Counted from the first letter of the stretch, positions 13,941-38,173 are shown. The stretch is DNA of 64,000 bases from a virus (IMGVR_UViG_3300010157_000047:26773-90772), one strand, 5' to 3'. Numbers and translations are program-made. Notes: generated by a model from the sequence alone, not told the origin.

Positions 13941-13968
13941 AAAAGGGGGGCTCAACCCCCCCCTAATT
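13941..13968. terminator. Bidirectional intrinsic terminator between the convergent gene blocks
   Basis: AAAAGGGGGG-CTCAA-CCCCCCCCTAATTT: a GC hairpin with A/T-rich flanks exactly between two stop codons. Confidence 0.8.
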
Positions 13969-16900
13969 TATTGTTTATTTTGAATTACTCCAGCTGCTCT
14001 ATCTTCTATTTTATATAAAACATTTATTATTGGTAATGTTCTAGCAAATTTCTTTTTAACAGATTCATCATCATAATATGAATTTCCCTCAAGATGTTTT
14101 ATAAATCCTTCTCCAAATTTTTCATAATCCACCATGATTCCAAGTGCAGGAATTAAGTTATCAGTAGTAGTCTTAAATGACATTGGATTCATATAAAATG
14201 TTATATCTTGAATTATTTTATTTGATGTATTAAGCATCATATATTTCCATTTTTTAGATTCTTTATCATCATCATCCATTGATGCAGATATCAACAAATA
14301 TGCACTCATTAACAATAGCAATGTTTTAAATTCATACAGTTGCTTTCTGACATTAGCCATAAATAATTTCTTATCCTTACCTAGTAATTTAATGCCATCA
14401 AATGAAGATTCTCCTTGGAATAATAATAATTTTAAAAATACTTTAGATAATTGAGTTGTGCCAGATATAAATCCTTCTTTATTTACAAAATTATATAATG
14501 TTCTGTAGGTACCTTCAAAATCACGTTCTAGTACCCCTAATTCACTTCTAGGCGCAAATCTGGCATACACACCATCTGCAAGCCAAGATAGCCTATATTG
14601 AGACACTAGTCTACCTAATGCATATCTTTTGATTGCAGGAGAAGTTTCTTTTGACATATTACCATAAAGTAATTGACTTACAAATTTGGATTTACTAATA
14701 AATGTAGACATTTTTCTATTGCCAACTAATGATTCTGGCCTAGCACCCCAATCTTCATCAACGCCAAATTCTTTTTCATTCCAGCTTCCATCTGCATTAA
14801 ATGCCTCAATAAGACTTCTTTCCCTTCCGGTTAAATCTTCAACTTTTTGATTATGCATCATTGCATCTAAAACTCCAAGACGAAGTATGTAATCACCTTC
14901 ACTAAGCCATCCCATAGGAGATAGTGCACTAACATTGAATCCAGCATTATTTGAATCACCACCATAGTGTTCTGGCAATAACCCATATCTCATGCCCAAG
15001 TTATATAATTTATTATTAGATCTCCCAGATGAGTTTACAGTGTTTTTAAGAGACTTTGTAGCATGCATTATACCATTGATAGCTTCATTAGGAGTAAACT
15101 CAGTTCTACCAGCTGCATGAGACATAATTTGAACTATTCCTGAACCAATATTAGCTACTGCTGGAAATGGATTATATGCAAATACCTTATATGCACCAAA
15201 TGTAATTAATCCATCAACGATCTTAGAGCCTACAACATTTTTACCTAAATTATCTAAAAATTTATTATAAATGCTTGACTTATAATTAAAATCTTCTTTT
15301 GTTATATCACCATTATCATGAGAAAATTCCATGTCATCTAAAATTTTTACCATATTTTTATAGGCAGTTTTTTCAGATTCTACTGTAACTAATGATGGAT
15401 ACTCTTTGACTATTTTAATAACAGCAGCTTCTTGTCCAAACTTAGAAACTAAATCATTAAATTTCTTAATAATAACAATAGCTTTAGCTGGATCAGCAAC
15501 AGATATCATTTTTTTAGTTGGATCAAATACTTTCTTTCCAGATACAGCTTCTTTCTCACTACTTTTATTGTATAAAACATTATTTAATACATGATCTATT
15601 AATTTTTTTAAATTAGTAAGATCATTTTTATTTTTAACATTTTTATTTGATGCCGCAACGTCTATCGTTCCATCAGCCCTAAGAACATTTTCGTGCATAT
15701 TCTCAACCATATTCTTTATAAGCAATGTATAATCTTCTATGGCAGATAGATGTTTGTGTGCAATAGCCATTTTTGAAAATTCAATTAAACTTTCTTCAAG
15801 ATTATCACTTTTGTAATCTGCACTTATATCTTTTAAATATCTTACTGGAATAATGTTTCTAGGATTGCCATTTTCATCAAGATATTGCAATTGCATTCCA
15901 TTGCCAGATGTTATTGATTCAATAAGAGTTTCAGACATAGAAGATGGAATACCTTTCATTCCATTTTTAAGCATACTGGCCATCATTCCTTTTTTAATAT
16001 TAGGAATAAATGTTCCATCTATTTTAGTAGATGCATATCCTGGCAAATAAGCTAAATGCTTTGCAAAAATATCAGCATATTTATTATAAAATCCAAGCAT
16101 AGTTGGATTTGATTTTACATTTAGATCAAATCTATTGTCATAATTTCCAAGACTATTATTATTTTCATCTACTCTCAATGGAACTTCTGTAATATATTTT
16201 GATATAGTATTAAATGTTCTTAAATCATCAAGACTATCTCCATTATTATAAACATAATTATGATATTCTATTGGAGATGTGTTTTTAAGATTTTCATCAA
16301 TAAATACAATGGATTCTTCAGCATCCTTACCATTGGCAACATTTTCTTTTTCTTCATCTATTAAATTATTATGAAGATCTTTCCAGTTATTATACTTTTC
16401 AACTGCTTCTTCGATTAATAAATCAGAATAATTTTCATCATCAGTAATTTCAACTAATCTTGCCTTAACTTTTTTCTTTCCAGCCTCAGTAAGACAGTCT
16501 TCTGGATTAATAGTATAAACATTATTCTTTATTGCAGAAGATTTTTTCTTAATTTCTTTTAATAGTAAAACATCAGTATTTTCAGCTTTACTGTATTTGA
16601 TTTTATTTATTTTTTCTTCAAATTCTTGATCAAGCTTTTCTTTAAAATTATAATATGTCTTACTATATCTAGCAAGCATATTACCATCCCATTTGCCATC
16701 ATCATCGATTGATAATAGATCTTTAAAACTTAATCCATTATCTTTTAAATCTTTAAATAGCTGCCTAATTTCATTTGCTGTTCCAAAAAACTCATTAGTA
16801 GATCTTTGACTAGCAGAACTTAAAAATTTATGCAATAAATTAACTACTGGTTTCCCTGTATAATGACCAAGTCCTCCAAGAGTCTTTCCTCCATATGATG

Positions 16901-18101
16901 AAATATCTGATTCATTTGATAAATTTCTATCTGGAATTATTAAATCGTATAAATCTTTACCTATATTTTTTATAAAAGATGGAATTACTTTTCTATGAAG
17001 ATAATCAAAAGAGGTATTATAAGATTTTCCCTGAATAGCTAATATACCATCCAAAGTCTTTTTATCAAGTGTCATTTTTTTCTCAAAGAAATTTCCTAAA
17101 TTTTGCCACATAGAAATAGCACTACTAGCAGCTAATAATTCTTCAGCTCTAGGATTTTTAGAATAAATTATTGAATTTATCCAAGATGCACTTTTATCAT
17201 ATAGCTCAGATAAATTTTTTATTGTTTTATTTTTAAATAAATTATATAATTGAGATCTTAATTCATGTAAATTTTTTTCATGATTATCAAGTTTTTTACT
17301 TAATTCAGCTATTCTATCTATTCCTTCTTGGCTTTTTCCAATAGATTTCATCTCATTGTTAACATCAGAAATTCTATTTTCCAATTTGCTAATTAATGAT
17401 TTTAAATCATCAGATCTTGATTTTATTTTTTCAGCAATGGTTCCAATAGCACTTCTTAAATTTACGTTAATCGGAGAGTCTGTAAAAAATGCATAATCAT
17501 CATCAAATATATTATCACCATATGCATCTCTTAAGTCAAATCCATCATCAAATATATGATCTGAAATGTAATCTAAAGGATCTTCAAATTCTAAATTTAA
17601 ATCATCTTCATATATAGGCTCTTCGTTTAATGTACTTTCATTATATACTTCTTCATTTAAATCAGAATATTCGCTAGAAGGATCATAATCATCTATATCA
17701 TTAGATTCATTTTCAACCCCCATATCAGGATCCTCAATAATTTCCTCATCTTCAGGCTTCACATTACCTTCTGAATATTTATAGCTTTGATTTATAAATT
17801 TTTCACCAAAATTAATATTGAAATTTAATAGCATAAGATTACTACTATTATTCAATATCATTTTTTCATTTGCAACATCATTCCCTAATTTATAATAATG
17901 ATTTTCACCATTGCTTAAATTATAATCATCTAGCTCCCTGATTAATTGCAATGCAGTATCTTTATTTATGCTAGCTGAAATATCAAATTTCTTAATAATA
18001 GGAGATATTATATTTAAGTATTTTTTAATACCTTCTTCTCCATTATCAGTAATAAGCTTTTTTAGCGTAGAATCTTGAATATTATTTATTTCGCATGCCA
18101 T
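13968..18101 (-). CDS. Large virion/ejected protein (1377 aa)
   Basis: Third of three giant genes, next to the RNAP; helical, with an acidic N-terminal linker and a C-terminal hydrophobic helix (FKTLLLLMSAYLLISASMDDDD). Confidence 0.7.
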   Translation of the reverse strand: MACEINNIQDSTLKKLITDNGEEGIKKYLNIISPIIKKFDISASINKDTALQLIRELDDYNLSNGENHYYKLGNDVANEKMILNNSSNLMLLNFNINFGEKFINQSYKYSEGNVKPEDEEIIEDPDMGVENESNDIDDYDPSSEYSDLNEEVYNESTLNEEPIYEDDLNLEFEDPLDYISDHIFDDGFDLRDAYGDNIFDDDYAFFTDSPINVNLRSAIGTIAEKIKSRSDDLKSLISKLENRISDVNNEMKSIGKSQEGIDRIAELSKKLDNHEKNLHELRSQLYNLFKNKTIKNLSELYDKSASWINSIIYSKNPRAEELLAASSAISMWQNLGNFFEKKMTLDKKTLDGILAIQGKSYNTSFDYLHRKVIPSFIKNIGKDLYDLIIPDRNLSNESDISSYGGKTLGGLGHYTGKPVVNLLHKFLSSASQRSTNEFFGTANEIRQLFKDLKDNGLSFKDLLSIDDDGKWDGNMLARYSKTYYNFKEKLDQEFEEKINKIKYSKAENTDVLLLKEIKKKSSAIKNNVYTINPEDCLTEAGKKKVKARLVEITDDENYSDLLIEEAVEKYNNWKDLHNNLIDEEKENVANGKDAEESIVFIDENLKNTSPIEYHNYVYNNGDSLDDLRTFNTISKYITEVPLRVDENNNSLGNYDNRFDLNVKSNPTMLGFYNKYADIFAKHLAYLPGYASTKIDGTFIPNIKKGMMASMLKNGMKGIPSSMSETLIESITSGNGMQLQYLDENGNPRNIIPVRYLKDISADYKSDNLEESLIEFSKMAIAHKHLSAIEDYTLLIKNMVENMHENVLRADGTIDVAASNKNVKNKNDLTNLKKLIDHVLNNVLYNKSSEKEAVSGKKVFDPTKKMISVADPAKAIVIIKKFNDLVSKFGQEAAVIKIVKEYPSLVTVESEKTAYKNMVKILDDMEFSHDNGDITKEDFNYKSSIYNKFLDNLGKNVVGSKIVDGLITFGAYKVFAYNPFPAVANIGSGIVQIMSHAAGRTEFTPNEAINGIMHATKSLKNTVNSSGRSNNKLYNLGMRYGLLPEHYGGDSNNAGFNVSALSPMGWLSEGDYILRLGVLDAMMHNQKVEDLTGRERSLIEAFNADGSWNEKEFGVDEDWGARPESLVGNRKMSTFISKSKFVSQLLYGNMSKETSPAIKRYALGRLVSQYRLSWLADGVYARFAPRSELGVLERDFEGTYRTLYNFVNKEGFISGTTQLSKVFLKLLLFQGESSFDGIKLLGKDKKLFMANVRKQLYEFKTLLLLMSAYLLISASMDDDDKESKKWKYMMLNTSNKIIQDITFYMNPMSFKTTTDNLIPALGIMVDYEKFGEGFIKHLEGNSYYDDESVKKKFARTLPIINVLYKIEDRAAGVIQNKQ

Positions 18102-18103
18102 AA

Positions 18104-21100
18104 TTAACTACATTTGGTTTTAAATATATTATGATTTAATGCATATCTAAAGGATTCTCTTTCTATCTGACTTGCTTTGCCCAAGAAATCTCTTACGGTT
18201 CCAGATAATCCCTGACTATTATTTTCTTCTATTGATTGATATTTTGATGAAATATCTTTTTTTATTATATCTTTCTTTTTAGAATCTCTAGTATCCATTA
18301 ATTCACTAGTAAGTAACATATTTTGAAGCATTGCAGCCTCTAAGATACTTTTTGAATTAACACTATCTCCATTAAAAAATTTAACTATCGAATCAAAAAA
18401 TGATGAAAATTTAGAAAATAATGTTTCTAATAAAGATTTATTTTTTTTAACTTTTAATTCTTTATATGTTTCATCTTTAAGATATACATTATTCATTAAT
18501 TCTTGAATATGCTGTCTTGATGATAGTTCAGATATAAATTCTTCAGGACTAATAAACATATATAATGATCTTTTAAGTTCGGCTTTAGCGTCTTCATCAG
18601 AACCATATAAATCCGCAGCTATCTCAGATATGGAATTAGTTGATTTTCCACTTTTCAATTTATATTTTATCTTACCTTTTTTTACAAAAGTACCATAAAT
18701 TAATTGATTACCTTCATATTCAAGAATTGATCCATTAACAGGATTTACAATTGGCAATTCAGAAACAGCATCTGTTGCATCTGAAAATATCTTATCTACA
18801 CTATTAGCTATTTCGGCAAATTGCTTATCACCACTTTTCCCTAAATTATAAGATTCAACCATTATAGCATGATGAATTTCATGCAATAAAGTTTCTTTAG
18901 CAAAATCAATAGACCCTGTCTGATCCGTCATTTTACTAAGCATTTTAGTATAAATTATTATTTGCTTTTTACCCTTAGTTATATTAAATTCTGCTATATC
19001 TCCAGATTCTTTAATTTCATCGCTATGAATCACATTAATATCACCTATTTTATCTGATAATTTATCAATAATGGCAGACATCCAATCTGAATATGTAGTG
19101 CCAATTTGCCTTATAATTGGCACTAAAGAACGGATATTAGATTGTTCTGAAAGCATCTTTAAAAAGAATGTTTTTGCTATTGTAAAATCTTCAGAAAAAG
19201 AATCTATATCAGTTGTTCCACCAATATAATATTCTTTTGATATGTTGTCAGATACATAATCTGAAAAAAATGAATTATCAAATAATTTTCCAGATTGCTT
19301 TAATTTATTTTCTGCCATTATCTTAGCAGAACCCCTGAGTATTGAATGATCAGATTTTGTATAATATGCAACATATGATCCACCATCTTTTGCATATCCA
19401 CTATACACATAAATATTATTATGTTTTGATTTCTCTGAACTTTTAATAAAAAGAGGTATGTTTGCTAATGAAAATTTAGGACCAACAGATACAATATATT
19501 TACCAATTTTATCATTAAAATTAGATGGCATTGATTTAAATTTCACATCTTGATTTGATACAAAGGAATTTATTTCATGTTGATATTGGGGATTATTTCG
19601 ATAAAATAAATTAATAAATTCATTTACTGATGCATCTGAATTATTTTCATTTACTTTTTTAGCTAATTTATTGTAAAATTCAATATCATTTAATATATCA
19701 GTAGGTATTATTTTTATAAAACCAGATCTTGTCTTATTGCCATTAGTTAATAATTCATAAAATATAATACCTTGTGCAATTTTTCTAATTTTTTCATCTT
19801 GACTCTTAGCCATATCATAAAATCCATCAATTGCAGCTTCCATATCTGCATTATTTATCATGTCTGCATTAAATGATATATGAGTATTAGATTTATTTAT
19901 TGATATAGATCTAATAAATTTATTATTTTTATATTTATTATTTTTTTGCAATAATCGAACATCTCTAGCTAAATATTTACCAAGCTGATTTATATTTGCC
20001 TTAACACCATATTCCTCTGTTACTACTTTTGTGAATATATAAGTTTTATATCCATCTATTGCAGATGATACAAAATTTGAATAATCATTTGAATTCATTT
20101 TATTGTATGCAGACAATTTACTTATAATTGATTTTATTGCAGGATCATCATATCCCATTACGCTATCAATTTCATTAACAACGCCTTTTGCTGTTGCTAA
20201 ATTATTTCCAGTAGTATTTAATCTTCCATTTAATGTTTGAGTATATTTTTGACTATTCGCTAATCCTAAATTGTTATTTCCATGATTTATAGATTCCAAT
20301 AATTTAGAATTTGCAATAGAAGATGTTTTAAATTCCCTGTCAAATGAAGTATTATTATTAAGTGCAAATATTTTTTTTGACATTTTCGATAATGGCATAA
20401 ATATATTATCAATTATATCAATTTGCTTTGTCAAATATTCTAATTTCTCATCATATAATGCATCTACGTTTCCAAGTAATTTTTGTCCTAAATTATATAT
20501 TTCAAATAATTCAGATTCATCATAATTTAATGATTTCATCTTATCAGAAATACTTTGCGCATCAGAAAGTTTTACCCCCAATTTATCAGCAAGTTTCTGT
20601 TTTGCACGTAATACTGATTGACCTATTTCTATATTTTTAATTTCACTAATTATTCCTTTAGAATTTGATTCTATTTTAGAAGACATTTTAACTATCTCCT
20701 GATTAAGGATAGCTGGAACATATTCTAATGATAATGAATTATTTTGATCATCAGATAATATCATTAATGTTGCAGCAATATTGAATGTTAAATCATTTAG
20801 TCCATTAGGAATTAAGTTTCCATTTTTTGCATTATCAATTGATTCAGATAATAATATTACAATATTACGCAAAGAAGTTCTTTCTTCATCGCCTATTGTT
20901 GATGTTGAATATGGATTAATTAAATGCAATTCTAAACCATTTGATCCTCCTGGAGCCCTTAGTTTTTTAATTGATTTTTTAGGGTCAAATTTTATATCTT
21001 TTCTATCTGCAAGAATAACTGATGACATTAATTTTGCATAAATATCTATTCCGCTATTTGCAGATTGCTGAAGTCTGTACTCTTCATTTTGTCGTGCTAT

Positions 21101-24100
21101 AGAGTACCAAGGAGACTTTGGATTTATTGAGAAATACTTATTACCAGTATTCTTTAAATCAGGTGCATCTAGAGCTTCTAATGCACTTTGAGCAACTTCT
21201 GGATGGCTAAGTACTGATTCAAAAATTTGAATATAATCATTTTGCAATGCTTTTTCAACTACTGTATTAAAATCTGGTTTATTTTCATCTTCAAAATTAT
21301 CATTAATGAAAGAATTTACATTATCATTATTTATAATAATATCACCATCTTCAGTGTATGAGATAAGATTTGATGGAGTACCTACCAATCTATTATCTTT
21401 TGTAAGAAATGAATTTCTCCAATACTGATACAATTTATCAATATCAAAGTCGGCACCTGTTTGAGTTACAATTTCTTGAGGAACAAAACATACAGTGCCC
21501 ATTAATTTAGGGGAAAATCCAACTATTTGAAATAGCACCTGAGATTGATGAAGCTGATTTGGAAGCCTCATACCAATTATTTTAAGTAATTCTGGATCTA
21601 TTTTATTAACATCCTCAATGCTAAGTTTTCCACCCATTGATACAAAATCAAAAGGTACAATTATTTCAGCTGTTGCAGTTGTGACTAATTCTCCATTTTC
21701 CATTGTTTTAACAGTTGTATATCCAAGAGGTTTGCTAGCATCCCTTCCATTTAACCATACAACGTCATTTCCTGCCTTTGAAGACATAACCTTAACTTTG
21801 CCTCCACCAACCAATGAAAATTGAGGATTTGCCCTTCCAGGACGATCTAATTTAATTGCATCTCCATTAGCTGAAAATAAAAATTGTTCAATCAACTTTC
21901 TTCCATGTGACCATAGGAGAGGCAATCCACTTTTATTTACAGATACTAACGAATGGGCCTCATTATTAGATACACCAGAATCAGCCTTGATTGACCTATC
22001 TACAATGCTATCAATATCATATTTTCCATCAATTTTAAGTCTAGCATCAATATTAGCTTTAGCCCTTTTAGATAATTCAATATTTATGGCATGCTTTATA
22101 TTGTCAAGATTTTCTCCGCTTATTGCATTGGATCCATTGAAATCTTTAAAATTAAAAACCTTATCATATAAGCCTCCAAGTATTGATTTATCAGCTTGCA
22201 CTACATTGGTAATATATTCATCTCCAAAGTGAGTTGGAGTTTCTTGTTGATAACCAAAGCTTGACCACGGCAATTCTTCTGAGCTTTGAGATATTTTTTC
22301 ATATATAGATTGAACAGTTGATCCAGTGACAAAATTAGATTGTTTACCATATATTTTAGCAGGAGTTTGTAATCCCTGCTTAACTGCTGATGCGTGAACT
22401 ATTCTACTAATATGAATGTCTTTAGATGGATCTTCATTGTAGCCTACTTCCATTGCAGCACGAAGATTATCTAAGTCTTCATTTATTGATTTTGTAAATT
22501 GAGCTAATAATGGAATTTCAGCTGATTTTATAAATACTTTGCTAACAACAGACTCTGCACCTATAGATTTAACTAAATGTGCAACTTGTCTAGGCTTCCC
22601 TGCTCCAATAAATAATTTACCAATATATTTGTCTGCAACTGTTCCATCTGCTTGATATTGTCTTCTCATTAAAATAAAATCTTTTTCATTAATCCTTCCA
22701 GATCTAAATAAAGATTCTAATTTATTGTAAAATGAAACATATTCCATTCCATCAGTTCCTTTTCCAGTATATTGTTTTATTTGTTTTTGGAATTTTTCTG
22801 GCAATGAAGACAAATATTTTTCACCATCAGTCAACGCATCTTCAATAAATGAAACTTTATAATTTTGCTTTCCAGTAATTACTAATCCATTTTTTAATTT
22901 TATTTCATATGTAGAAACAACATCTGTTGCAGGAGATATATCAGCAGATAATCGTTTTTGATATTCATTCATAAACGAATCTATTGCCAAATTAATAGAT
23001 AGCCCATTAACATCAGCTACATTCATTTCTTTCAAAACTTTTTTGACAGCTGATACTTTGCTCTCAAGAGACTGCTGTGATGTTGCAGGATCAGATGAGG
23101 CTATAATCCCCATATTACCCATAACAGAAAAAGTATTCATATTAGATTCAATAGACAATACAGATAAAACTCTTAGCATTTCATCATTAAAAGCGGTATT
23201 GCCAGATAATGTTTTTAATGCCATAGATATTTTTCTAGACTGCTTTGTATTTGCTCCTGAATTTTCCAATAGCTGCAATGTACGAAATGGATTAAGTAGC
23301 TTTATATCATTTTCAGGAATATTTAATATTTTAGATAAATACGAATAATCTTCATCCGAAATTAATTCTGATTTTTTAACTAATTGATTTGCTGCTTCTC
23401 CTGATGCATCATCTAATTGAGACTCATCTATTTGAGATTCATCAAATTCAATTTCATCTTCATTTACAGTAGCATTTGTTTTAGATTTTTTTGTTATGAA
23501 AGGAGCATATCCTTTAGAGACTCCCCATTTATAATTTATTAAATTAGTAAACATTTTTCCTTTTCCTGCAACAACTAATCCATTTGCCTTCCAAGAAGAA
23601 ATATCTGTGCTTATTGATTCTATAAAATTTTTATATAATGCTTCTTTAAATAAAATTTCATTTGTTGAATTAGATAAATCTAATTTCTTAAGACCTTTTT
23701 CACTTATTGTTCCATCTGCATTTCTATCTATCAATGAATTTAAAGATGCCATTGAATAAAAAAACTGAGAATTATAAATATAATTTTTACCAAATATTCT
23801 TTCTAACTCTTTTGCTTTATTTTTATATGTTGTAGTGTTAGAATTATCTTTATTTGTTACAGCAAAAATCATTCTGTCAATTTCTGCAGCAATAACACTC
23901 ATTGAATCATGCATTAAATCACTTTGCATAATCCTAGCTTTAGCTCTAGGTGATATTATTAAATTACCATTATCATACGATATAAAATCTGTAAGTGCAA
24001 TTTTATTTCTTTCAGCTTCTATTGTATATGTGACTTCAAATTCTTTTCTTGGAACTTTAAATGATGGAGATTTTTTCTTGTCAGATTTAGTAGTATCTAA

Positions 24101-26104
24101 TATTCTAGTATATTTTTCTCCACCAGACTGAAATGCCTGCAATGCGCTAAATGTCAAATCAACTTCATTTAAATCATTTCTAGTTTTTCCATTATTAGAT
24201 CCAAAAGATTTTAATCCGTAATTTTCTTCATATGAAAATATTCTATTAAAATTTTCACTTCCAAATCCATCTTTACCAAACATTGACAATTTACGCAATC
24301 CTATTGAATTTGCTATAGAATTTCTAAAGGATTCATTATTTAATAATTTTTTAAATAAATTATCATTAGGAGTTGGTTGATTATAATTATAGCGCATTCC
24401 ATTAGATCCACTAGTTTTTACGCCAGCAAATGAATTTGAAAAATATCTATTGCTATTTTTACCTTCAATGCCAGATAAAAATCTAAATGAAGTTTGATTT
24501 AAATCATCAATAAATTTATCAACAACAGATTCTGCAGATAAATTTTCTATTGATGATTTATTAAATTCAGACATTATTGTTGCTATAGATCCAAATACAC
24601 CACTTTTTGTATGTGCCTTGTCGAATGACCTAGCTGATAAATTATATCCATTTTTAGTACTATATAGTTCTTTATCTCCATCCTTAAGCGCATTAAATGT
24701 ATCATTAGAAATTTCCACTCCAAGTTGATTCATCATTGTTTTTGCTAAAGATTCAATATTTGAATATTTATCATCTTTAGATTTCTTGAGACTTACATCT
24801 TTTGCATTATCAATAAATTCATTTCCTAAATCATTTATATATGAAATAATTCTATCTGGATTTTCATCTAATCTAGAGGAAATTATATCTAAAGAATTAG
24901 TTATATCTGAATTCCATATTCTAGCTACTACTTTGCCTACATTTCCACTGTTAGCATCTCCAACATTTGTTTTTGATGCATCTAATTCATTAAATGATAT
25001 TTGTACAAAATTATTTCTAATTTTATTTAATGATACTTCAAATTGAATTTTTCGTTGAACACTACTATTATCCATTATATTATATACTTGATCAAATAAA
25101 TTGTCTGCTGGATGTCGCTTAGATTCATTTAATATCAATTGCTTCATACCATCAAATGTATTATCAGTACCCGAAGTAAGTGTCATTAAAACCTGCTTAT
25201 ATACATATGATTGGTCTAATAATTGAGATACGCCAAGATTATTTTTACCATAATCCAATAATCCCATAAACATAGCCTTTATGCTTGTAGCTGAGAAATC
25301 TTTAGGATCTTTACCCAAAGAATCATCTGCATCAAATGTTCTTTCAGTTATATCATTTTTTTCAGTCTCCTCTAGATTTAAATTTTCTAAGTCTGCATTT
25401 TCTGAATTTAAATCAATATTAGGGGATGATCTTAATTTCTTTTTATTTTTAGATCTAATACGTATTCCATTCAATTCCAATGAATTAACTGCTTCTTTTT
25501 GCAAAGATTGCCATGCCATAGGATCTAATATTCTATCATAAGATCTAATTGCAGAATCATATCTATCAATCAATCTGGAATCATCTTCTGTTTTATTTTT
25601 TTTATTAGATAAGGATAATTTTCTTTGAAGTATGGTTTCTTTTAATGCACTAATATTTTCTTTTGCTTTATTAAAAATTTCTAGTAAATTAGGAGATCTA
25701 TTTTCTATAAAAGCAGCAGTAACTCCAACCAATATGCTATCTACACCAGCACGTTTTTCTGTTAAATTAAGAGTTTCTCCATTAGAGGTTTTAATTCGTG
25801 ATGAAAAATCTTTTTTGGGTCTATTGTTGGATTGATCTGGGCTATATTTATAAGATAAATCTTCTTGATTCTTCATGTTATTATATGCGGAATCAAGATC
25901 TTCCTCAGATAATGATTTGAGTATAAGCTTTTTAATGTTTTCATTTAACTTTTCAAAATCGCTTATAAATGGTAATCCATTATTAGAAACATTGCCATTA
26001 GTTTTATTCCATATATAATATGCTAAATTAATATCTCCTAATCTATTATGAAGATTTAGAAATGATTCATGATTAACATTGGGACATATTATTTTCTTTG
26101 CCAT
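18104..26104 (-). CDS. Virion-packaged single-chain double-psi beta-barrel RNA polymerase (crAss-like, phi14:2 gp66-type) with a C-terminal zincin-like domain
   Basis: IIGMRLPNQ, QTGADFDIDKLY (about 21435-21460), SESIDNAKN; LLHEIHHA...PEEFISE near the C-terminus (about 18870). Confidence 0.92.
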   Translation of the reverse strand: MAKKIICPNVNHESFLNLHNRLGDINLAYYIWNKTNGNVSNNGLPFISDFEKLNENIKKLILKSLSEEDLDSAYNNMKNQEDLSYKYSPDQSNNRPKKDFSSRIKTSNGETLNLTEKRAGVDSILVGVTAAFIENRSPNLLEIFNKAKENISALKETILQRKLSLSNKKNKTEDDSRLIDRYDSAIRSYDRILDPMAWQSLQKEAVNSLELNGIRIRSKNKKKLRSSPNIDLNSENADLENLNLEETEKNDITERTFDADDSLGKDPKDFSATSIKAMFMGLLDYGKNNLGVSQLLDQSYVYKQVLMTLTSGTDNTFDGMKQLILNESKRHPADNLFDQVYNIMDNSSVQRKIQFEVSLNKIRNNFVQISFNELDASKTNVGDANSGNVGKVVARIWNSDITNSLDIISSRLDENPDRIISYINDLGNEFIDNAKDVSLKKSKDDKYSNIESLAKTMMNQLGVEISNDTFNALKDGDKELYSTKNGYNLSARSFDKAHTKSGVFGSIATIMSEFNKSSIENLSAESVVDKFIDDLNQTSFRFLSGIEGKNSNRYFSNSFAGVKTSGSNGMRYNYNQPTPNDNLFKKLLNNESFRNSIANSIGLRKLSMFGKDGFGSENFNRIFSYEENYGLKSFGSNNGKTRNDLNEVDLTFSALQAFQSGGEKYTRILDTTKSDKKKSPSFKVPRKEFEVTYTIEAERNKIALTDFISYDNGNLIISPRAKARIMQSDLMHDSMSVIAAEIDRMIFAVTNKDNSNTTTYKNKAKELERIFGKNYIYNSQFFYSMASLNSLIDRNADGTISEKGLKKLDLSNSTNEILFKEALYKNFIESISTDISSWKANGLVVAGKGKMFTNLINYKWGVSKGYAPFITKKSKTNATVNEDEIEFDESQIDESQLDDASGEAANQLVKKSELISDEDYSYLSKILNIPENDIKLLNPFRTLQLLENSGANTKQSRKISMALKTLSGNTAFNDEMLRVLSVLSIESNMNTFSVMGNMGIIASSDPATSQQSLESKVSAVKKVLKEMNVADVNGLSINLAIDSFMNEYQKRLSADISPATDVVSTYEIKLKNGLVITGKQNYKVSFIEDALTDGEKYLSSLPEKFQKQIKQYTGKGTDGMEYVSFYNKLESLFRSGRINEKDFILMRRQYQADGTVADKYIGKLFIGAGKPRQVAHLVKSIGAESVVSKVFIKSAEIPLLAQFTKSINEDLDNLRAAMEVGYNEDPSKDIHISRIVHASAVKQGLQTPAKIYGKQSNFVTGSTVQSIYEKISQSSEELPWSSFGYQQETPTHFGDEYITNVVQADKSILGGLYDKVFNFKDFNGSNAISGENLDNIKHAINIELSKRAKANIDARLKIDGKYDIDSIVDRSIKADSGVSNNEAHSLVSVNKSGLPLLWSHGRKLIEQFLFSANGDAIKLDRPGRANPQFSLVGGGKVKVMSSKAGNDVVWLNGRDASKPLGYTTVKTMENGELVTTATAEIIVPFDFVSMGGKLSIEDVNKIDPELLKIIGMRLPNQLHQSQVLFQIVGFSPKLMGTVCFVPQEIVTQTGADFDIDKLYQYWRNSFLTKDNRLVGTPSNLISYTEDGDIIINNDNVNSFINDNFEDENKPDFNTVVEKALQNDYIQIFESVLSHPEVAQSALEALDAPDLKNTGNKYFSINPKSPWYSIARQNEEYRLQQSANSGIDIYAKLMSSVILADRKDIKFDPKKSIKKLRAPGGSNGLELHLINPYSTSTIGDEERTSLRNIVILLSESIDNAKNGNLIPNGLNDLTFNIAATLMILSDDQNNSLSLEYVPAILNQEIVKMSSKIESNSKGIISEIKNIEIGQSVLRAKQKLADKLGVKLSDAQSISDKMKSLNYDESELFEIYNLGQKLLGNVDALYDEKLEYLTKQIDIIDNIFMPLSKMSKKIFALNNNTSFDREFKTSSIANSKLLESINHGNNNLGLANSQKYTQTLNGRLNTTGNNLATAKGVVNEIDSVMGYDDPAIKSIISKLSAYNKMNSNDYSNFVSSAIDGYKTYIFTKVVTEEYGVKANINQLGKYLARDVRLLQKNNKYKNNKFIRSISINKSNTHISFNADMINNADMEAAIDGFYDMAKSQDEKIRKIAQGIIFYELLTNGNKTRSGFIKIIPTDILNDIEFYNKLAKKVNENNSDASVNEFINLFYRNNPQYQHEINSFVSNQDVKFKSMPSNFNDKIGKYIVSVGPKFSLANIPLFIKSSEKSKHNNIYVYSGYAKDGGSYVAYYTKSDHSILRGSAKIMAENKLKQSGKLFDNSFFSDYVSDNISKEYYIGGTTDIDSFSEDFTIAKTFFLKMLSEQSNIRSLVPIIRQIGTTYSDWMSAIIDKLSDKIGDINVIHSDEIKESGDIAEFNITKGKKQIIIYTKMLSKMTDQTGSIDFAKETLLHEIHHAIMVESYNLGKSGDKQFAEIANSVDKIFSDATDAVSELPIVNPVNGSILEYEGNQLIYGTFVKKGKIKYKLKSGKSTNSISEIAADLYGSDEDAKAELKRSLYMFISPEEFISELSSRQHIQELMNNVYLKDETYKELKVKKNKSLLETLFSKFSSFFDSIVKFFNGDSVNSKSILEAAMLQNMLLTSELMDTRDSKKKDIIKKDISSKYQSIEENNSQGLSGTVRDFLGKASQIERESFRYALNHNIFKTKCS

Positions 26105-26110
26105 ATTATA

Positions 26111-29100
26111 TTATTTAATACAATTTAATAAATTATCTTCACCTTCACTCTGTTCAGTACTATCTATATTATCATCAATACTTATTGATTTTGAAAATCC
26201 ATAATCAGTAACAGATGATTTAACATTATCTGAAAATAAATCATTATCTGCATCTTCAGTATAACTAGAGTCAGATGATGTGTTAATGCTTCCTGCAAGA
26301 AAATCGGGTATTTGCATAATAATGTTGTCTTCATCGATAATAGTAGGAGCCTGAGTTTCCCCAGGCTCACTAGCTTTTAGCACTTGCCTTTTTTCTTTGT
26401 TGGCATTGCTGGTTGGAACGGTTTTTTTGTTACTTGCTTTTTCATTGCTTTTTGATTTTAATCGTGAAACACTAGAACCTGTTGTTAAGATTATATTAGA
26501 CGTATGTATGGCTCTTTCTAAACTTGAAGTTATTATTAATGGAGTAGCGCCTATTTGCTTGCCAAGATCGGCAGCCTGAGATTCACCAAGTTTTGTTAAT
26601 TTAGTATCATCTGATCTAAAATTATTCTTTTTATTATCTTCTGTTTCTCCATGCCTTGCAATATTTAAAATACCATTATCACTATTTATTTTAAATGATG
26701 CACCAGTATTGCTATCTAATTTTATATATTCTTTTCTAAAATTTTCATCAAATTTAGATGGTCTACCCATTGAATCCCATAGCCTAATAAGTCCAAATGC
26801 AGTATTATGAGTTACAATAGTAGAATTATTAGGAGCAGATTTAATTGCTTTAATTAATGATGATTTAACTCTATGTGCAAATGTATTAAATGATTCACCT
26901 CCATGTATTGCATCATTAGGATGATTAAGAATCATGTCGTTAACTTCATCAATTATATCTTGATTTTGATCAGTACCTACTAAATCTCCTAAATCAAATG
27001 TTTTAAGATTATCATCAGGAGTAATATTATTTGATATTGGAGAAATAGTTTCTTTAGATCCAATTTGATCATCAACACTAAACTCTAATACTGGTTGTAA
27101 AAAATATACATTTTTCTCAGATTCACCTGATCCAATTTTTCCAGCAGCTTTAAAATTAATTGATCTACTTTTCATATAAAAATCACTAATAGATTTTGCT
27201 AATTCAGAATGACTTAAATCGTCATTTATAATTACTACGCTATTAGGTACGCTTTTATGATAATCATTCTTGAGATGCTCACGACTAAAATTGCTTTTCA
27301 TTCCAGCAAAATCTGATACTAATAAATTTGCTAGCTCAGTGCTAATTTTTTCATTTTCATTTATAATTTTACGCTTACCATTACTCGACCATGTTAAATA
27401 AAACTTACCATTATTTTTTGTTGAATACCCTAAATTAGCCTGAGCCAATTTATGATCACTGATCCAAACAAATTGAGATAAATACTCTCTAAGACCAGCT
27501 CGTCGTATCCTTCTCATGCCATCATCGGTAGATTCATTCATTGGAGCATTTTTTCTATCATGCCATCTGGCACCAAGATCATATAATATATCTTTAGTAT
27601 TCTGAGATTGAAATAATGATATTGCATTTAATATTGAAGATGCATTTTGTACTCCAACACCATTATCAATAGCCACCTCTGGAGATAATAATCCATTTGC
27701 AGTTGGAACCATAACAACTGGAACACCATTTTCTAATTCAGTTCTAATAGAATCAGGTACTTGATTTCCATCTATACCAACTGCTTCTCCTCCTTCAATA
27801 GTTGCCCATAATCTGCTTGGATCTCCAGTGTATTTAGCTACATCTAATGCTAAATCAGGAGCATTATCCATAATCATTCCAGCAGTTTCAGTTGCCATGA
27901 CTGTACCAGCTCCTACAGCAGTTATTTTAGATTGTATATTAAATGTTTTATTTCCTTTATTGAATTGCTTTTTAAATTCTTCCCTTAATTGCTTTATCTC
28001 TTCAACTTTAGCTCTAATAGTTTTTTCGTCTTCAACTTCTGCTATATGGGTTCTAGATCCAGAATCATCCTTTTCATTAAGCCACATATGCTCTGGAAGA
28101 TATCCAATTAAATCTTTTTTGCCATTAGATAATATATATATAGCAATTGGCATTTCAAATTTATTTGCATCACCATATTGCTTATTGTCCTTAGCGGCTT
28201 CTTCTGCAGATATAGTTTTTGTTTTCATTGTTCCATCTGCATTCATAATTGGTCTACCGCTGCTATTTCTTGCTATCGATGGAATTGGACCATCGGCAAT
28301 CTCCATAACTATATCTGCATGTTCAGTAAATTCTATATCTGAATTTTTTAGAAACTGATTATTAACGCCTTCTGGCTTGTTTTTCATTACCCATAAATCA
28401 CCAACCTTAACAAATGAATATTTCAATGCAAGGTAATTAACGGCAATAGCATTTATTCTTTTTTTACCAGATGACAGCGTTTTATCTTGAATATCTTTTT
28501 TTATAATAGTGGCTTTAGATCTTCTATCATTAAGATTAGATCTAGCATTTGATTTTTCCTCAACTGAATTAGATATAACTTCTTGGGCTTTTTCAGATGC
28601 AGTATATACGCCACGTTTTCTATATTCAGATTCAATATCTACATTTTCGCCATTATCAATTCTATCTAATACATCTTGAACCGTATTAATGTCTACTTTA
28701 AAATTGCCAATAGTTAGAGTTACGGGACTCTTAGCATCAGCAAATTTATTATCTATATTAGATAACTTTCCAGTTCCAAAATCTTTTTCTGAAGATAAAC
28801 CTTCTCTATAGGATTCTATTGAATTATTTAATCTAACTGCTCTTTGCGATATATCAAATAAAGCATCATCATCTGAAGTAGCTTTCTTAATATAATTTAA
28901 ATTTAATTTACTTCCAGTAGGATTAGGCTCTAATGAAAAATATCTATCATCAGATTTCTTAGCTCCTTCTTCTTTGAATAAATGGATAGATGGATTTTCA
29001 TAGTCAAAATTATCCCCAGTAATATCTTTAAATGATTTATCAGATATTTGAGTTTGAGATCTTCCTCTCTCAACTATATTGCCATCTTCATCTTCAGTTT

Positions 29101-31201
29101 TAATGCCAGACAATCCAAATATATCATGAATAGATTGATTATTTGTACCTTTAATTAATGGTATAATTGGTTTATCTAATGATGGTATTTCTTTAGTGAT
29201 AATATTATTAATTATTTTTTTATCGCTAAATGGCGTCTCATCAATAACAATAGGCTCAGTTTCCGTAGATACAGTATCTGATAAATCTGATATTTTCTTT
29301 TCGTCTATATCAGATTTAATTTCTTCTGCCTTAGCTTTTCTAGCCTCTTTAAATTTATTTTGAGTTTCATCAGATGTAGCTTGTTTATATTGATCATTGA
29401 TTGCTTCTAGAATAACATTAGCACTTGCTTTTTGTTCCTCTAAATTTTTTGTCATCTTTGTAATATTTTCCTCATTTACAGTGCCATCTGGATTTGTATT
29501 TTGAGGAAGATTTCTTATGTCTGCAATTTTTGCATCAATATCATTTATATTATTTCTTACTGCCTCCATCCCAACTATTGATGATAATATCTCTTTAGCA
29601 TTTTCTTTACCAGCAATTCCAGAATTATTTGCTAATTTAGATATAGATTCTAATGCATCAATAGCAGATTTTGCTCTTTGTTTTTCTGCATCAGATTTAT
29701 TTTTATCATCCAAAATATTTTTTAATATATCTATTTTAGCATTTGTAGATGACATATTGATAGGACCATTTTCTTCGGAGTTAACTGCATCATGAGCAAT
29801 AGATGAAGCTGCAAATTCATTAGCAAATCCATCTGGATCTTGATCTATATCAGTATTTGGATCTTCTATATAATTATTTACATCTTTAATATGTTGATAT
29901 GATGAATCAAATTTATCTATAACAGATTTCTTGCCATTAAGACCAGCTGCATCTTTTAGATCCTTAATAGCACTTTTAATTTTTGTAGTTACAGGTTCTA
30001 CTTGTGGAACTACACCATGAGTGACAATAGTGCTTCCTGCGCCACCCAATCCACCAAGCATCATTGATTCAAGACCCTGAGTTTCACCAAGTCTGCCAAT
30101 AGATCTAGTTAGATCATATTTATATTTATCTTCTTGTTCGCCTTTTAATGCAGCTTCTGTTTGTGCTATATAATTTATACCTTCTTCTAGTGCTTCTTGT
30201 CCAGTCTCTGCTAATATTGTTTTACCAAATCCACCAAATGCTTTTTCAATTGCACCTCTAGCACCAGTAAATAATCCAGCAGAAGATATATTTGAGAAAA
30301 AATTTAATCTATTAATATTCAAACTTACATCAACAGCATCAGAAGCTTTTTGCTTTGCTTCAGAATCTGAGTATCCTTGATCTAATTTCATTTTATATAC
30401 CTGATCATATGATGAAATACCTTCCATTATATTTTCAGATTGATTCATTGCAGCTGCATTTATTAATGTTGGTGCAGCATATAGTTTTTTAGATACATAA
30501 TTTTCAATAAATGCAGGAGCATCTTTTTCAGCTAATTCACCTGTATTAATTAATTTTAATGCTTTAGCTTTAGCAGATCCTTCAAGAGCTGCAATTCCAG
30601 CCTCACCAGCAATAGCTTTAGCAGCACCCGATAGTAATCCACCAGTTACCCATCCAGATAGCGCAAATGCGCCTACTGAGTTGGCTAATTGAGATATATT
30701 ATCCCATACATATCCAGAGTCTCCAAAATCAAATGATTTTCCTGCATTCTTATGATATATAGGCAATGCATTATTTATAGAATTCATTAATGAATTAGTT
30801 GTTTTTTCAATTGGATTTCCAAATTCATTATCAACATTGTAATAATCTTCAAGATCAACTGATGATGCTAAATTACCGACAGCACCAAGAACCGCATTAG
30901 GTAAAAATCTTAAAGCAGTATTTAATGCTTGCTCTCCACCAGATTGACCTTGAGCCCTAATTTGATTAATATTCGCATCAGGGCTAAGCAATGCTGGAGA
31001 AGGTATATAATTAGTATATTTACCAATATAATCTACTCCAGTATTATTAGAGTATTTTATTGGAGACGATAGAGCCGGTGCCGAAAATTGTTCATCCTGT
31101 TTAAATACTGGATTGCCAGATGCATCAGTTTCCGTTAATGATTTATTCTCTAATTGAGCTGCTCTATTTTGCTCATATAATTTAGATATTGAATCTGGCA
31201 T
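26111..31201 (-). CDS. Large virion/ejected polyvalent protein (1696 aa) with a C-terminal histidine phosphatase domain
   Basis: Gly/Ala-rich hydrophobic segments and an ETGQEALEEG motif typical of ejected proteins; RHGET...LT.LG..QA...SSLERA.T and GGESF...RV...IVTH motifs. Confidence 0.75.
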   Translation of the reverse strand: MPDSISKLYEQNRAAQLENKSLTETDASGNPVFKQDEQFSAPALSSPIKYSNNTGVDYIGKYTNYIPSPALLSPDANINQIRAQGQSGGEQALNTALRFLPNAVLGAVGNLASSVDLEDYYNVDNEFGNPIEKTTNSLMNSINNALPIYHKNAGKSFDFGDSGYVWDNISQLANSVGAFALSGWVTGGLLSGAAKAIAGEAGIAALEGSAKAKALKLINTGELAEKDAPAFIENYVSKKLYAAPTLINAAAMNQSENIMEGISSYDQVYKMKLDQGYSDSEAKQKASDAVDVSLNINRLNFFSNISSAGLFTGARGAIEKAFGGFGKTILAETGQEALEEGINYIAQTEAALKGEQEDKYKYDLTRSIGRLGETQGLESMMLGGLGGAGSTIVTHGVVPQVEPVTTKIKSAIKDLKDAAGLNGKKSVIDKFDSSYQHIKDVNNYIEDPNTDIDQDPDGFANEFAASSIAHDAVNSEENGPINMSSTNAKIDILKNILDDKNKSDAEKQRAKSAIDALESISKLANNSGIAGKENAKEILSSIVGMEAVRNNINDIDAKIADIRNLPQNTNPDGTVNEENITKMTKNLEEQKASANVILEAINDQYKQATSDETQNKFKEARKAKAEEIKSDIDEKKISDLSDTVSTETEPIVIDETPFSDKKIINNIITKEIPSLDKPIIPLIKGTNNQSIHDIFGLSGIKTEDEDGNIVERGRSQTQISDKSFKDITGDNFDYENPSIHLFKEEGAKKSDDRYFSLEPNPTGSKLNLNYIKKATSDDDALFDISQRAVRLNNSIESYREGLSSEKDFGTGKLSNIDNKFADAKSPVTLTIGNFKVDINTVQDVLDRIDNGENVDIESEYRKRGVYTASEKAQEVISNSVEEKSNARSNLNDRRSKATIIKKDIQDKTLSSGKKRINAIAVNYLALKYSFVKVGDLWVMKNKPEGVNNQFLKNSDIEFTEHADIVMEIADGPIPSIARNSSGRPIMNADGTMKTKTISAEEAAKDNKQYGDANKFEMPIAIYILSNGKKDLIGYLPEHMWLNEKDDSGSRTHIAEVEDEKTIRAKVEEIKQLREEFKKQFNKGNKTFNIQSKITAVGAGTVMATETAGMIMDNAPDLALDVAKYTGDPSRLWATIEGGEAVGIDGNQVPDSIRTELENGVPVVMVPTANGLLSPEVAIDNGVGVQNASSILNAISLFQSQNTKDILYDLGARWHDRKNAPMNESTDDGMRRIRRAGLREYLSQFVWISDHKLAQANLGYSTKNNGKFYLTWSSNGKRKIINENEKISTELANLLVSDFAGMKSNFSREHLKNDYHKSVPNSVVIINDDLSHSELAKSISDFYMKSRSINFKAAGKIGSGESEKNVYFLQPVLEFSVDDQIGSKETISPISNNITPDDNLKTFDLGDLVGTDQNQDIIDEVNDMILNHPNDAIHGGESFNTFAHRVKSSLIKAIKSAPNNSTIVTHNTAFGLIRLWDSMGRPSKFDENFRKEYIKLDSNTGASFKINSDNGILNIARHGETEDNKKNNFRSDDTKLTKLGESQAADLGKQIGATPLIITSSLERAIHTSNIILTTGSSVSRLKSKSNEKASNKKTVPTSNANKEKRQVLKASEPGETQAPTIIDEDNIIMQIPDFLAGSINTSSDSSYTEDADNDLFSDNVKSSVTDYGFSKSISIDDNIDSTEQSEGEDNLLNCIK

Positions 31202-36265: not shown

Positions 36266-38173
36266 TTAAATATCTTTAAATATATAACCGCCATATTCAA
36301 ACTTACTTTTTGCTTTTGCAGTAGAAGATAATTGACTATTGCCATCTGCAAACTTCTTCATTTCTATTGCATCATCATTAGCCGATTTAAGGCGTTGTAA
36401 CGATACTTTTTGCGTGTACCTAGTAATAGGATCATTAGGCCTTTCATCTGCTAATTTAGATACTTTCTTGCTTATTTCTGAAAATGTTTTTCCAGCATAT
36501 CCATCACCTAAATTATAATCTTTAGCATTGTCTAATTTCAATCTATCAGAAAATATATAGTTGTTATATTTTGTTTCACCTTGCTCTACATAATCATTAG
36601 GACCTTGATTAATTCCACCATTAGGATTTTCCTCATGGCTGCCACCAGTATTAAAACTAGTCAATGGGGTATTTGCTTGAGCATAAGATCCACCTCCAGA
36701 ATGATTTCCAATAGGACCACCATATGCTGCACTATATATACCACCTTGATCTGGATTAGCAGTTTTGTTACCATAAATTTGCCTTCCTGCTACCATATCT
36801 TGCATTTGCTTTTCTTTTTTATCTTTTTCAGCATTAAGATATGCTAATCCGCCACCAACAACAGCACCAACTCCCATGCCTATTGGCCCTAATGCAGCAC
36901 CAGCTGCAGCACCTTCAACAGCACCTTTAGCAGCTGACATACCTGGACTATTAGGCTTGTCAGTAAGATTTAATGCAGCAGTTACAAAGGGAGCAGCTGT
37001 AGTTGCAATATTACCAGCACTAGCTCCTGCAGGATTAACAGCTTTAGTCGCATCAGAAGTAATAGGCATTTGCTTAGATTGAATAACATTACCAGATGCC
37101 ATATTTGTTAATGATGCAGGGTTAGCTCCTCTGCCAGTTGCAAGATTCATAGTCTGATCTGAATATTGTGTAGGCTGAACAGAGACATGTTGATTGGGAA
37201 CCATTGGCAATCCAGATGGATTAAACTGCTGAATTGGATCTCCAAGTGCATGCATTGTTGGCAATTCATTAGGATCTATAACTGGAGCATTAGTACCCTG
37301 GATTTCACTCCTATTATTTTTCATGAAATCCATCATAGCACCACCAGTAAAATACATTTTACCACCATGCCAATAAATATCCTTAATATTTTTATCTTGT
37401 TTCATTTTATTTAATGAATTAATTTCCCCACCATCTGCATGTTTCAATTTATTTAGCTTAATAAGAAGAGGATTCTTCTTTAAGGCATTTTGAAAGTCAT
37501 TCTCAAATGCTGGATTATTGTGCAATATTATATCATTTGCATATTGCTTTGTAAGTGGCGGCAATTCCTTTACCCATTTTTTAGCATCATATATATTAAC
37601 TCCCTTAGCTTTTTGTTTATTAAGGTAATTTAGAGTATTTCCACGGCCCATATGCCATATAACTTCTTTCAATGCGTTTAATGATTCATTACTATGTGGC
37701 TTACCTTTAACAAATGATGCATTTTCAACATCTTTGTCATGCCATCTATAAACTTTTAATGACTGATCAATATCATCTACACTTTCATATGGAGTTTTAT
37801 CTCCAGTAGCTTTTTGATAGTCACCGTATAGCCCTGCCCTAATCTGCAATGGCCCACGCGCATTTGCGGATGATATTATTGGATTACTGGCATTTTTAAA
37901 ATTTACATTTCCAGATGATTCTCTAAATGCTTTATGAGCAACTCTTTGACCAAATAAATTATCTGGGTCTAAGGTCTCATCTAATTGACTATAATCTTCA
38001 GATGGATCAATGGATCCACCTTCATCTAATCGTCCGCCATACGCCTTTAAATTAGACATAGCACCAAAGAATTTCCTTTGCTTATCAGTCAATGGATGTC
38101 CATGAACTTTTTTGTCATGAAGAATCTTTTTTGCTTTAGGTGCAGATATTGTAGGTAGATTAGCGTTGCGCAT
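36266..38173 (-). CDS. Cargo protein (635 aa) with a lysozyme-like domain and a glycine-zipper membrane segment
   Basis: RESSGN...SSANARGPLQI; GAAAGAALGPIGMGVGAVVGG; FNTGGSHEENPNGG...VEQGET...IFSDRL crAss motif. Confidence 0.7.
   Translation of the reverse strand: MRNANLPTISAPKAKKILHDKKVHGHPLTDKQRKFFGAMSNLKAYGGRLDEGGSIDPSEDYSQLDETLDPDNLFGQRVAHKAFRESSGNVNFKNASNPIISSANARGPLQIRAGLYGDYQKATGDKTPYESVDDIDQSLKVYRWHDKDVENASFVKGKPHSNESLNALKEVIWHMGRGNTLNYLNKQKAKGVNIYDAKKWVKELPPLTKQYANDIILHNNPAFENDFQNALKKNPLLIKLNKLKHADGGEINSLNKMKQDKNIKDIYWHGGKMYFTGGAMMDFMKNNRSEIQGTNAPVIDPNELPTMHALGDPIQQFNPSGLPMVPNQHVSVQPTQYSDQTMNLATGRGANPASLTNMASGNVIQSKQMPITSDATKAVNPAGASAGNIATTAAPFVTAALNLTDKPNSPGMSAAKGAVEGAAAGAALGPIGMGVGAVVGGGLAYLNAEKDKKEKQMQDMVAGRQIYGNKTANPDQGGIYSAAYGGPIGNHSGGGSYAQANTPLTSFNTGGSHEENPNGGINQGPNDYVEQGETKYNNYIFSDRLKLDNAKDYNLGDGYAGKTFSEISKKVSKLADERPNDPITRYTQKVSLQRLKSANDDAIEMKKFADGNSQLSSTAKAKSKFEYGGYIFKDI

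Follow-up and report, generated by a model that had tools for sequence, protein, structure and literature searches.

Histidine phosphatases are defined as a superfamily by an Arg/His/Arg/His quartet (R8/H9/R58/H149 in HFP) and an Asn in the phosphate pocket, and the proton donor differs among their families (PMC12051542). In branch 1, the RHG half comes first in the chain and the donor is the Glu of an L-x-E motif (E83 in PhoE, E82 in HFP). Among crassvirus proteins, crAss001 gp45, gp46, gp47, gp49 and gp50 have been found in virions by mass spectrometry, with ejection involving partial unfolding proposed (PMC10172136), and a review describes the crassvirus polymerase as pre-packaged (PMC10136315). 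Delivery together with the DNA is also supposed for polyvalent proteins, which are giant and multi-modular (PMC5512222; Iyer et al., 2017). The present analysis concerns a 64,000-nucleotide stretch of viral DNA (IMGVR_UViG_3300010157_000047:26773-90772, the whole of which is called the window) that encodes a giant protein carrying a histidine phosphatase domain whose halves stand in reversed order. The source record is that of a crAss-like gut phage, 90,772 bp long with direct terminal repeats; the window is 30% GC and holds crAss-type late and cargo genes on the minus strand. The domain is a complete, circularly permuted histidine phosphatase that behaves as a mobile cassette; it probably rides on a carrier packaged and ejected with the polymerase, and probably dephosphorylates a host protein, a nucleotide or a cofactor early in infection.

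The fold itself is a textbook one, and its rotated connectivity is unmatched among the papers searched, solved structures and BFVD. Neither 8 million open papers nor bioRxiv yielded anything on a permuted form of a histidine phosphatase or PGAM, and a literature search for a phosphatase on the crassvirus polymerase returned nothing relevant. The two crassvirus papers (PMC10172136, PMC10136315) mention no phosphatase on polymerase-block proteins, and the word 'phosphatase' is absent from the polyvalent-protein paper (PMC5512222). Databases name such proteins 'PhoE' or His_Phos_1 and leave the permutation unremarked; for example, automatic naming at JGI has given two close relatives, P0005 and P0006, the label 'broad specificity phosphatase PhoE'. 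New here are a carrier other than the polymerase that has received the insertion, orthologues that lack the module and its movement among three carrier proteins, as well as a canonical-order sister group with a common loss of the donor Glu and a control for the fold search.

Circular permutation of the phosphatase domain

The carrier gene is an uninterrupted open reading frame (ORF), in which the domain consists of two profile-matching pieces and a region that joins them:

26111..31201, minus strand: carrier gene for the giant protein P0001 of 1696 amino acids (aa), in the cargo / virion RNA polymerase block (ORF list, translation)
26789..27028, minus strand: first piece, residues 1392-1471, the counterpart of the canonical C-terminal half (beta3, the cap and GGES helices and the IVTH strand; Pfam, TIGR03162, model); AlphaFold2 elements E9-12, H30-42, H54-71 and E76-80
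26663..26788, minus strand: joining region, residues 1472-1513, with a helix, a W..GRP..Y..TG block, beta5 and a tight turn into the RHG strand (model, conservation); AlphaFold2 elements H82-93, H102-108, E118-123, then E126-132
26483..26662, minus strand: second piece, residues 1514-1573, the counterpart of the canonical N-terminal half (RHG strand and helix, SSLER strand and helix; Pfam, phmmer, Foldseek)

The motifs run in the order that an earlier, sequence-only reading of this DNA had described. DDNLKTFDLGDLVG starts at residue 1396 of the carrier and is followed by GGESF (1434), AHRV (1442) and IVTH (1462-1465); the second group then begins with IARHGETEDN at 1514, KLGESQA at 1537 and SSLERAIHT at 1559. 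That reading also expected two partial His_Phos_1 matches in reversed order, and these were obtained. Over the whole carrier protein, His_Phos_1 (PF00300) scores 60.1 bits in two such stretches. Scanned alone, the first piece matches profile positions 70-153 with 27.4 bits (E 3e-6) and the second positions 3-65 with 42.9 bits (E 6e-11), each above the gathering score of 21.7 bits. The NCBIfam CobC model TIGR03162 breaks likewise, at positions 68-150 and then 3-67. The second piece also gives phmmer matches to the N-termini of yeast PGM1 and BPGM. A six-frame scan of the whole genome returned the identical two His_Phos_1 pieces and no further copy. The domain extends over residues ~1392-1579 (window 26465-27028), slightly wider than the 26485-27020 first proposed. 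In the joining region, W1475, G1479, P1481, Y1492, G1500 and G1510 are each conserved in 96-109 of the 118 aligned family members, the set to which all residue counts below refer.

A reversed order could also be left by two tandem canonical copies, of which the end of the first and the start of the second persist without a shared active site; permutations usually arise when a gene is duplicated and parts are then lost, and intermediates could exist. However, the two pieces span the profile exactly once, with no overlap or gap, and nothing phosphatase-like flanks them. The survey of the family bears on the same point. A HMMER scan over 1.84 billion cluster representatives gave 409 matches at E<=1e-3, of which the best 150 were inspected. 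The whole ~190-residue permuted unit is colinear in 117 of these 150 clusters, and about a dozen canonical-order relatives match as two stretches in reversed order. Proteins carrying the permuted unit are between 192 and 5655 aa long, 86 of them over 1000 aa, and have it near the N-terminus, in mid-protein or at the C-terminus. Some, of 192-219 aa, are the permuted unit and little more: P0010 (192 aa), nearly the unit alone, is found on 10 contigs of up to 59 kb, and a 313-aa ORF within a 57-kb IMG/VR contig starts 16 residues ahead of the permuted domain. Such short proteins, together with the joint conservation of the catalytic residues of both pieces in 118 divergent members, speak against tandem remnants. 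An assembly or frameshift artefact in the contig has no observation in its favour and is opposed by the intact ORF, by recurrence of the order in 19 IMG/VR contigs and in 117 clusters independent of one another, by the direct terminal repeats of the 90.8-kb record and by the GC content of the domain, which at 0.288 is close to that of the remaining gene (0.314).

In agreement with these observations, AlphaFold2 with a 20-sequence alignment predicts a single compact domain (mean pLDDT 94.9, pTM 0.90), and the pTM value argues for one domain rather than two. The order of elements in the model is strand, helix, helix, VTH strand, helix, helix and strand, followed directly by RHG strand, short helix, helix, SSLER strand and helix. 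A control model of P0142, the relative of canonical order that is closest to the domain (AlphaFold2 pLDDT 92.2), has the identical twelve elements in an exact rotation: RHG strand, short helix, helix, strand and helix come first, and strand, helix, helix, VTH strand, helix, helix and strand make up the remaining seven. Foldseek returned only local matches for the permuted model, in which 68-72 columns of the RHG half align with PGAM/BPGM (38-40% identity, 2.1-2.9 A); no global match was found in PDB or BFVD. In contrast, canonical P0142 gave 304 PDB matches at E<=1e-3 (best 2e-14, TM about 0.8), and the missing global match is therefore read as an effect of connectivity. The PDB copy and BFVD appear to hold no structure with such connectivity. 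The domain is thus a true circular permutation. Tandem remnants are highly improbable and an artefact more improbable still, and both are essentially excluded.

In the permuted chain, canonical strand beta3 comes first, with the cap, GGES helix, VTH strand and beta5 after it; a turn then leads directly to beta1, which is the RHG strand, and the last element is the helix next to the SSxxR strand on its C-terminal side. The new termini lie in the loop at profile positions ~65 to ~70, and the old termini are joined through a tight beta5-beta1 hairpin. In the SCOP description of the fold, the sheet order is 3-2-4-1-5-6 with strand 5 antiparallel, so that strand 5 pairs antiparallel with strand 1. 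Given this order, closure of the old termini requires a tight beta5-turn-beta1 hairpin, as the model predicts.

In a tree built by a quick search only, 118 sequences of permuted order and 11 of canonical order require three label changes, of which the strongly supported branches force one; the tree is compatible with a single permutation event but is no proof of one. The ESM Atlas gave generic histidine phosphatase clusters only, and PHROGs matches only a canonical-order family, on the RHG half. Searches by tblastn with the domain and the whole carrier against 50,697 deposited phage genomes gave no match, and neither did PADLOC.

Catalytic residues and predicted chemistry

The following positions define the predicted active site:

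26999..27001, minus strand: T1401, at the canonical proton-donor Glu position; Thr in 103, Ala in 11 and Ser in 2 of 118
26807..26809, minus strand: H1465 (VTH), predicted second catalytic His; His in 112/118, Asn in 5
26648..26656, minus strand: R1516-H1517-G1518, predicted phosphate-binding Arg and nucleophilic His; R and H in 118/118, G in 117/118
26615..26617, minus strand: R1529, a family-specific extra Arg; Arg in 116/118
26513..26515, minus strand: R1563 (SSLER), predicted second catalytic Arg; 118/118

The His_Phos_1 score, the RHG with its nucleophilic His, the second Arg and second His, and the phosphate-pocket Asn after RHGET (N1523, Asn in 114/118) are those of branch 1. The Glu of L-x-E and the RHG-first chain order of the alpha/beta/alpha sandwich are lacking. 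The sequence-only reading, which had seen a histidine phosphatase with swapped halves, Thr at the Glu position and the RHG motif, second His and second Arg all retained, is borne out, and these features hold across the family. R1444 (116/118), D1522 (110/118) and E1436 (108/118) are kept as well, and D1403, two residues beyond T1401, is Asp in 88, Asn in 17 and Glu in 8 members. R1529 aligns by phmmer with Thr20 of yeast PGM1, a substrate-contact position, and its equivalent, R18, is invariant in the canonical-order sisters.

The best profile and structure matches are to the PhoE / CobC (alpha-ribazole phosphatase) / iPSP1 / Aquifex HFP group (PDB 1H2E, 6NRU, 6E4B, 4IJ5, 9MMH). Common to both are RHG, the second Arg, the second His, the pocket Asn, the GES..R helix and the secondary-structure elements. 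The present domain differs in its rotated order, the change of Glu to Thr, the extra R1529 and D1522, the lack of a sixth strand and its embedding in a giant phage protein. A canonical-order sister subfamily (P0142, P0151, P0152, P0145, P0137 with LPD23 and P0114 with NUDIX) was found as well. Its members share WDLG without Glu, reading LRPWDLG at the donor position, as well as GGESFN..R, VTH, the W of the post-VTH helix, the extra Arg and a five-strand core that ends with beta5; unlike the permuted family, they have RHG first and are matched globally by solved structures in Foldseek. Because these sisters also lack the Glu, its loss predates the permutation or is independent of it. Two sisters are composite proteins: P0114 joins NUDIX to the phosphatase, and P0137 joins the phosphatase to LPD23, a polyvalent-protein domain, and a sigma-70 region 4 / GcrA-like HTH.

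On this residue set, the domain would be a phosphomonoesterase acting via phospho-H1517. R1516, R1563, H1465 and N1523, with the additional R1529, would hold the phosphomonoester for attack by H1517, and the resulting phospho-histidine intermediate would then be hydrolysed. The missing Glu acid might be replaced by D1403, a candidate substitute, or made dispensable by a good leaving group on the substrate.

An alternative is that the domain is folded and permuted but no hydrolase: a phospho-ligand binder or pseudo-phosphatase that, for example, docks the cargo or polymerase on a phosphorylated host factor or nucleotide. Replacement of the donor Glu by Thr, Ala or Ser across the family fits such a role, as does an Asn for the second His in five members, P0004 included. 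However, the nucleophilic His and both Arg residues are present in every member, and the pocket Asn and second His are nearly invariant, a pattern typical of selection for catalysis. The donor is in any case variable across histidine phosphatase families (PMC12051542) and is absent from the canonical-order sisters, which leaves a binding role unlikely.

The enzyme could instead form the phospho-histidine and act mainly as a phosphotransferase or mutase, with slow hydrolysis of the intermediate in the absence of the Glu. Mutases belong to the superfamily, loss of the acid/base should slow hydrolysis of the intermediate, and a further conserved Arg, R1529, points to a substrate with several charges. 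Against this stand the equivalog models: TIGR03162 (CobC) scores 59.9 bits against a cut-off of 162.9, in two reversed pieces, and TIGR01258 (dPGM) 26.7 against 81.7, over the N-terminal half only. A main activity of this kind is judged slightly less probable than a binding role. Indeed, the CobC, GpmB, dPGM and PspA equivalog models all score far under their cut-offs, so that no specific substrate can be assigned. For a phosphatase directed at proteins, SixA (PDB 1UJC) offers a possible functional analogy: this minimal histidine phosphatase, a phospho-histidine protein phosphatase, resembles the present domain in its small core, which bears little cap (PMC12051542), although it is of canonical order and lies outside the top matches.

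Insertion into the carrier

Comparison with orthologues that lack the phosphatase divides the carrier into three parts:

27029..31201, minus strand: conserved body, residues 1-1391, common to orthologues without the phosphatase (alignments of P0154, P0155, P0156)
26429..27028, minus strand: inserted segment, residues 1392-1591, comprising the permuted domain and a short basic linker; skipped by P0154
26114..26428, minus strand: conserved acidic C-terminal tail, residues 1592-1696, ending NCIK (P0154 1372-1473, E 2.6e-5)

RHG is absent from all three orthologues, which are 1417-1473 aa long, share 47-49% identity with the carrier and align to its residues 1-1391..1421. The alignment of P0154 to P0001 covers 1-1391 and resumes at 1592-1696. 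As judged by these alignments, the phosphatase is no plain C-terminal domain but an insertion of ~200 aa, with the conserved body on one side and the acidic tail, also conserved, on the other. Recent foreign acquisition, as judged by composition, was rejected on the GC values of domain and gene given above.

A close relative, L021, shows the same arrangement of the block. Its order is muzzle-like protein, cargo protein 1, SLT protein, a 548-aa protein, carrier orthologue, polymerase and 1377-aa-like protein, as in the window. The tails themselves have a common feature. Orthologue tails end in ICIK or ICKK; the polymerase (18104-18240, minus strand) also has a conserved tail, ending ..NIFKTKCS, and that of the carrier ends ..NLLNCIK. 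Such Cys-containing termini are kept in orthologues (ICIK, ICKK, FKTKC), with the phosphatase just upstream in both carriers. These Cys-ended tails may be a packaging or processing signal.

The polymerase block and possible roles

The carrier gene is surrounded by the following genes:

13968..18101, minus strand: 1377-aa polymerase-block protein, downstream; homologues in P0063 and P0072 are joined to the permuted phosphatase
18104..26104, minus strand: virion RNA polymerase, 2666 aa, with a single DFDID; BLASTP match to crAss001 Gp50 around GADFDIDKLY (E 5e-12)
32916-36263, minus strand: 1115-aa cargo-block protein whose residues 678-763 form an SLT lytic transglycosylase domain (21.6 bits, barely above the cut-off)
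36266..38173, minus strand: cargo protein 1 homologue, 635 aa, upstream; Pfam crAss_CARG1, 95 bits (cut-off 27)
38160-42437, minus strand: 1425-aa protein matching phrog_28748, 'virion structural protein' (E 1.5e-125), and 49% identical to its L021 counterpart

The carrier gene therefore lies between the crAss_CARG1 gene and the virion RNA polymerase gene, within the cargo block. The gene order agrees with that of crAss001 gp44-gp50 and, more broadly, with the Crassvirales block (crAss001 gp45, gp46, gp47, gp49 and gp50; phi14:2 gp66), in which a muzzle-like protein and cargo protein 1 precede giant proteins and a polymerase with DFDID.

In relatives, the module recurs on the polymerase itself. 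The two nearest relatives of the domain (50-52% identity) both stand on polymerases. P0006 (3219 aa) is a polymerase homologue with the module just ahead of a conserved tail that ends FKTKC, and P0005 (4305 aa) fuses carrier body, polymerase and phosphatase module. P0072 (5655 aa) combines polymerase, phosphatase and the 1377-aa partner, and P0063 joins phosphatase and partner. In an iterated search, the polymerase region was found in at least 16 module-bearing clusters, with the module ahead of the polymerase in 7 clusters, flanked by polymerase segments in 3 and behind the polymerase in 6; the 1377-aa partner takes part in another two architectures. Among 19 IMG/VR loci, polymerase similarity occurs within 8 kb in seven, and similarity to cargo protein 1 in an eighth, L005. 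The module is read as a mobile cassette, set here at the body/tail junction of a giant protein and in relatives on the polymerase or its partner.

Other partners are less regular. Kinase-PolyVal (PF18762) occurs in 7 of 117 clusters, from other phages, where the module is N-terminal on proteins of 2000-2800 aa, and it was rejected as a universal partner on that count. In contrast to polyvalent proteins, the window's carrier has no other recognised effector domain; the phosphatase is its one recognised enzyme domain, and P0006 shows a weak SprT-like match under the Pfam cut-off.

The carrier would be packaged in the capsid and extruded into the cell alongside the polymerase, to refold inside. 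The synteny and the polymerase fusions point to delivery at infection. The phosphatase would then probably remove phosphate from a host protein, a phosphorylated nucleotide or a cofactor in the first minutes, beside early transcription.

Several observations weigh against this picture. The carrier body compared with crAss001 gp47 and gp49 gave hhalign probabilities of 1.4% and 0.1%, and neither the profile nor the BLAST comparison was significant, so that the assignment as virion cargo rests on gene order and fusions. Accordingly, the 'giant ejected virion protein' of the sequence-only reading gains indirect support from the CARG1 and polymerase neighbours and the polymerase fusions in relatives, and none from homology to gp47. 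Most carrier proteins have no other recognised domain. No phosphatase is encoded by the closely related and syntenic L021, either in the block or elsewhere in its record of 96 kb, whose completeness is put at 64%; the module is therefore accessory and dispensable. Replacement of the donor Glu by Thr in 87% of the family may mean slow turnover or a different chemistry. Lastly, the meeting of RHG, R1563 and H1465 in one pocket is a prediction.

In BLASTP, carrier residues ~100-288 (30340-30900, minus strand) align weakly but colinearly with residues 113-310 at the N-terminus of crAss001 Gp47, at 26% identity (E 0.65, non-significant). The stretch occupies a corresponding position in the two proteins, and a remote homology is possible.

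A more specific proposal, for now tentative and on balance doubtful, makes the phosphatase a dedicated accessory of the injected transcription machine, tethered to the polymerase or to either of its two partners. Its target might be a host factor, a defence signal, or a phosphorylated nucleotide or cofactor (e.g., a 2'-/3'-phosphorylated adenine dinucleotide); in the last case, the converted molecule would be used or tolerated by the polymerase. If true, the phages most abundant in the human gut would have, at the onset of infection, a biochemical step not known before.

Whichever target applies, the broader reading of a cassette delivered with the polymerase points to a phosphate-removing step at the onset of infection in a dominant gut-phage group. 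The family is large, with over a hundred clusters at 50% identity, and appears as a mobile cassette, repeatedly fused to polymerases, on giant proteins thought to be injected by crAss-like and other phages. It also provides a clean natural case of a circular permutation spreading as an insertion module. The domain, small, soluble and of about 190 aa with natural stand-alone versions, can be directly expressed and assayed.

Some further features were observed. The SLT domain of the 1115-aa protein is consistent with an ejected protein that cuts the cell wall. The 1425-aa protein sits at the position of crAss001 Gp44, a 'virion structural protein' taken as the muzzle protein. In L005 (7464-8879), the phosphatase directly follows a cargo-protein-1-like stretch, in a frame without ATG, GTG or TTG ahead of the domain. 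Read with table 11, this locus falls apart into numerous short ORFs, a pattern that suggests an alternative genetic code in the phage, whose GC content is 28%.

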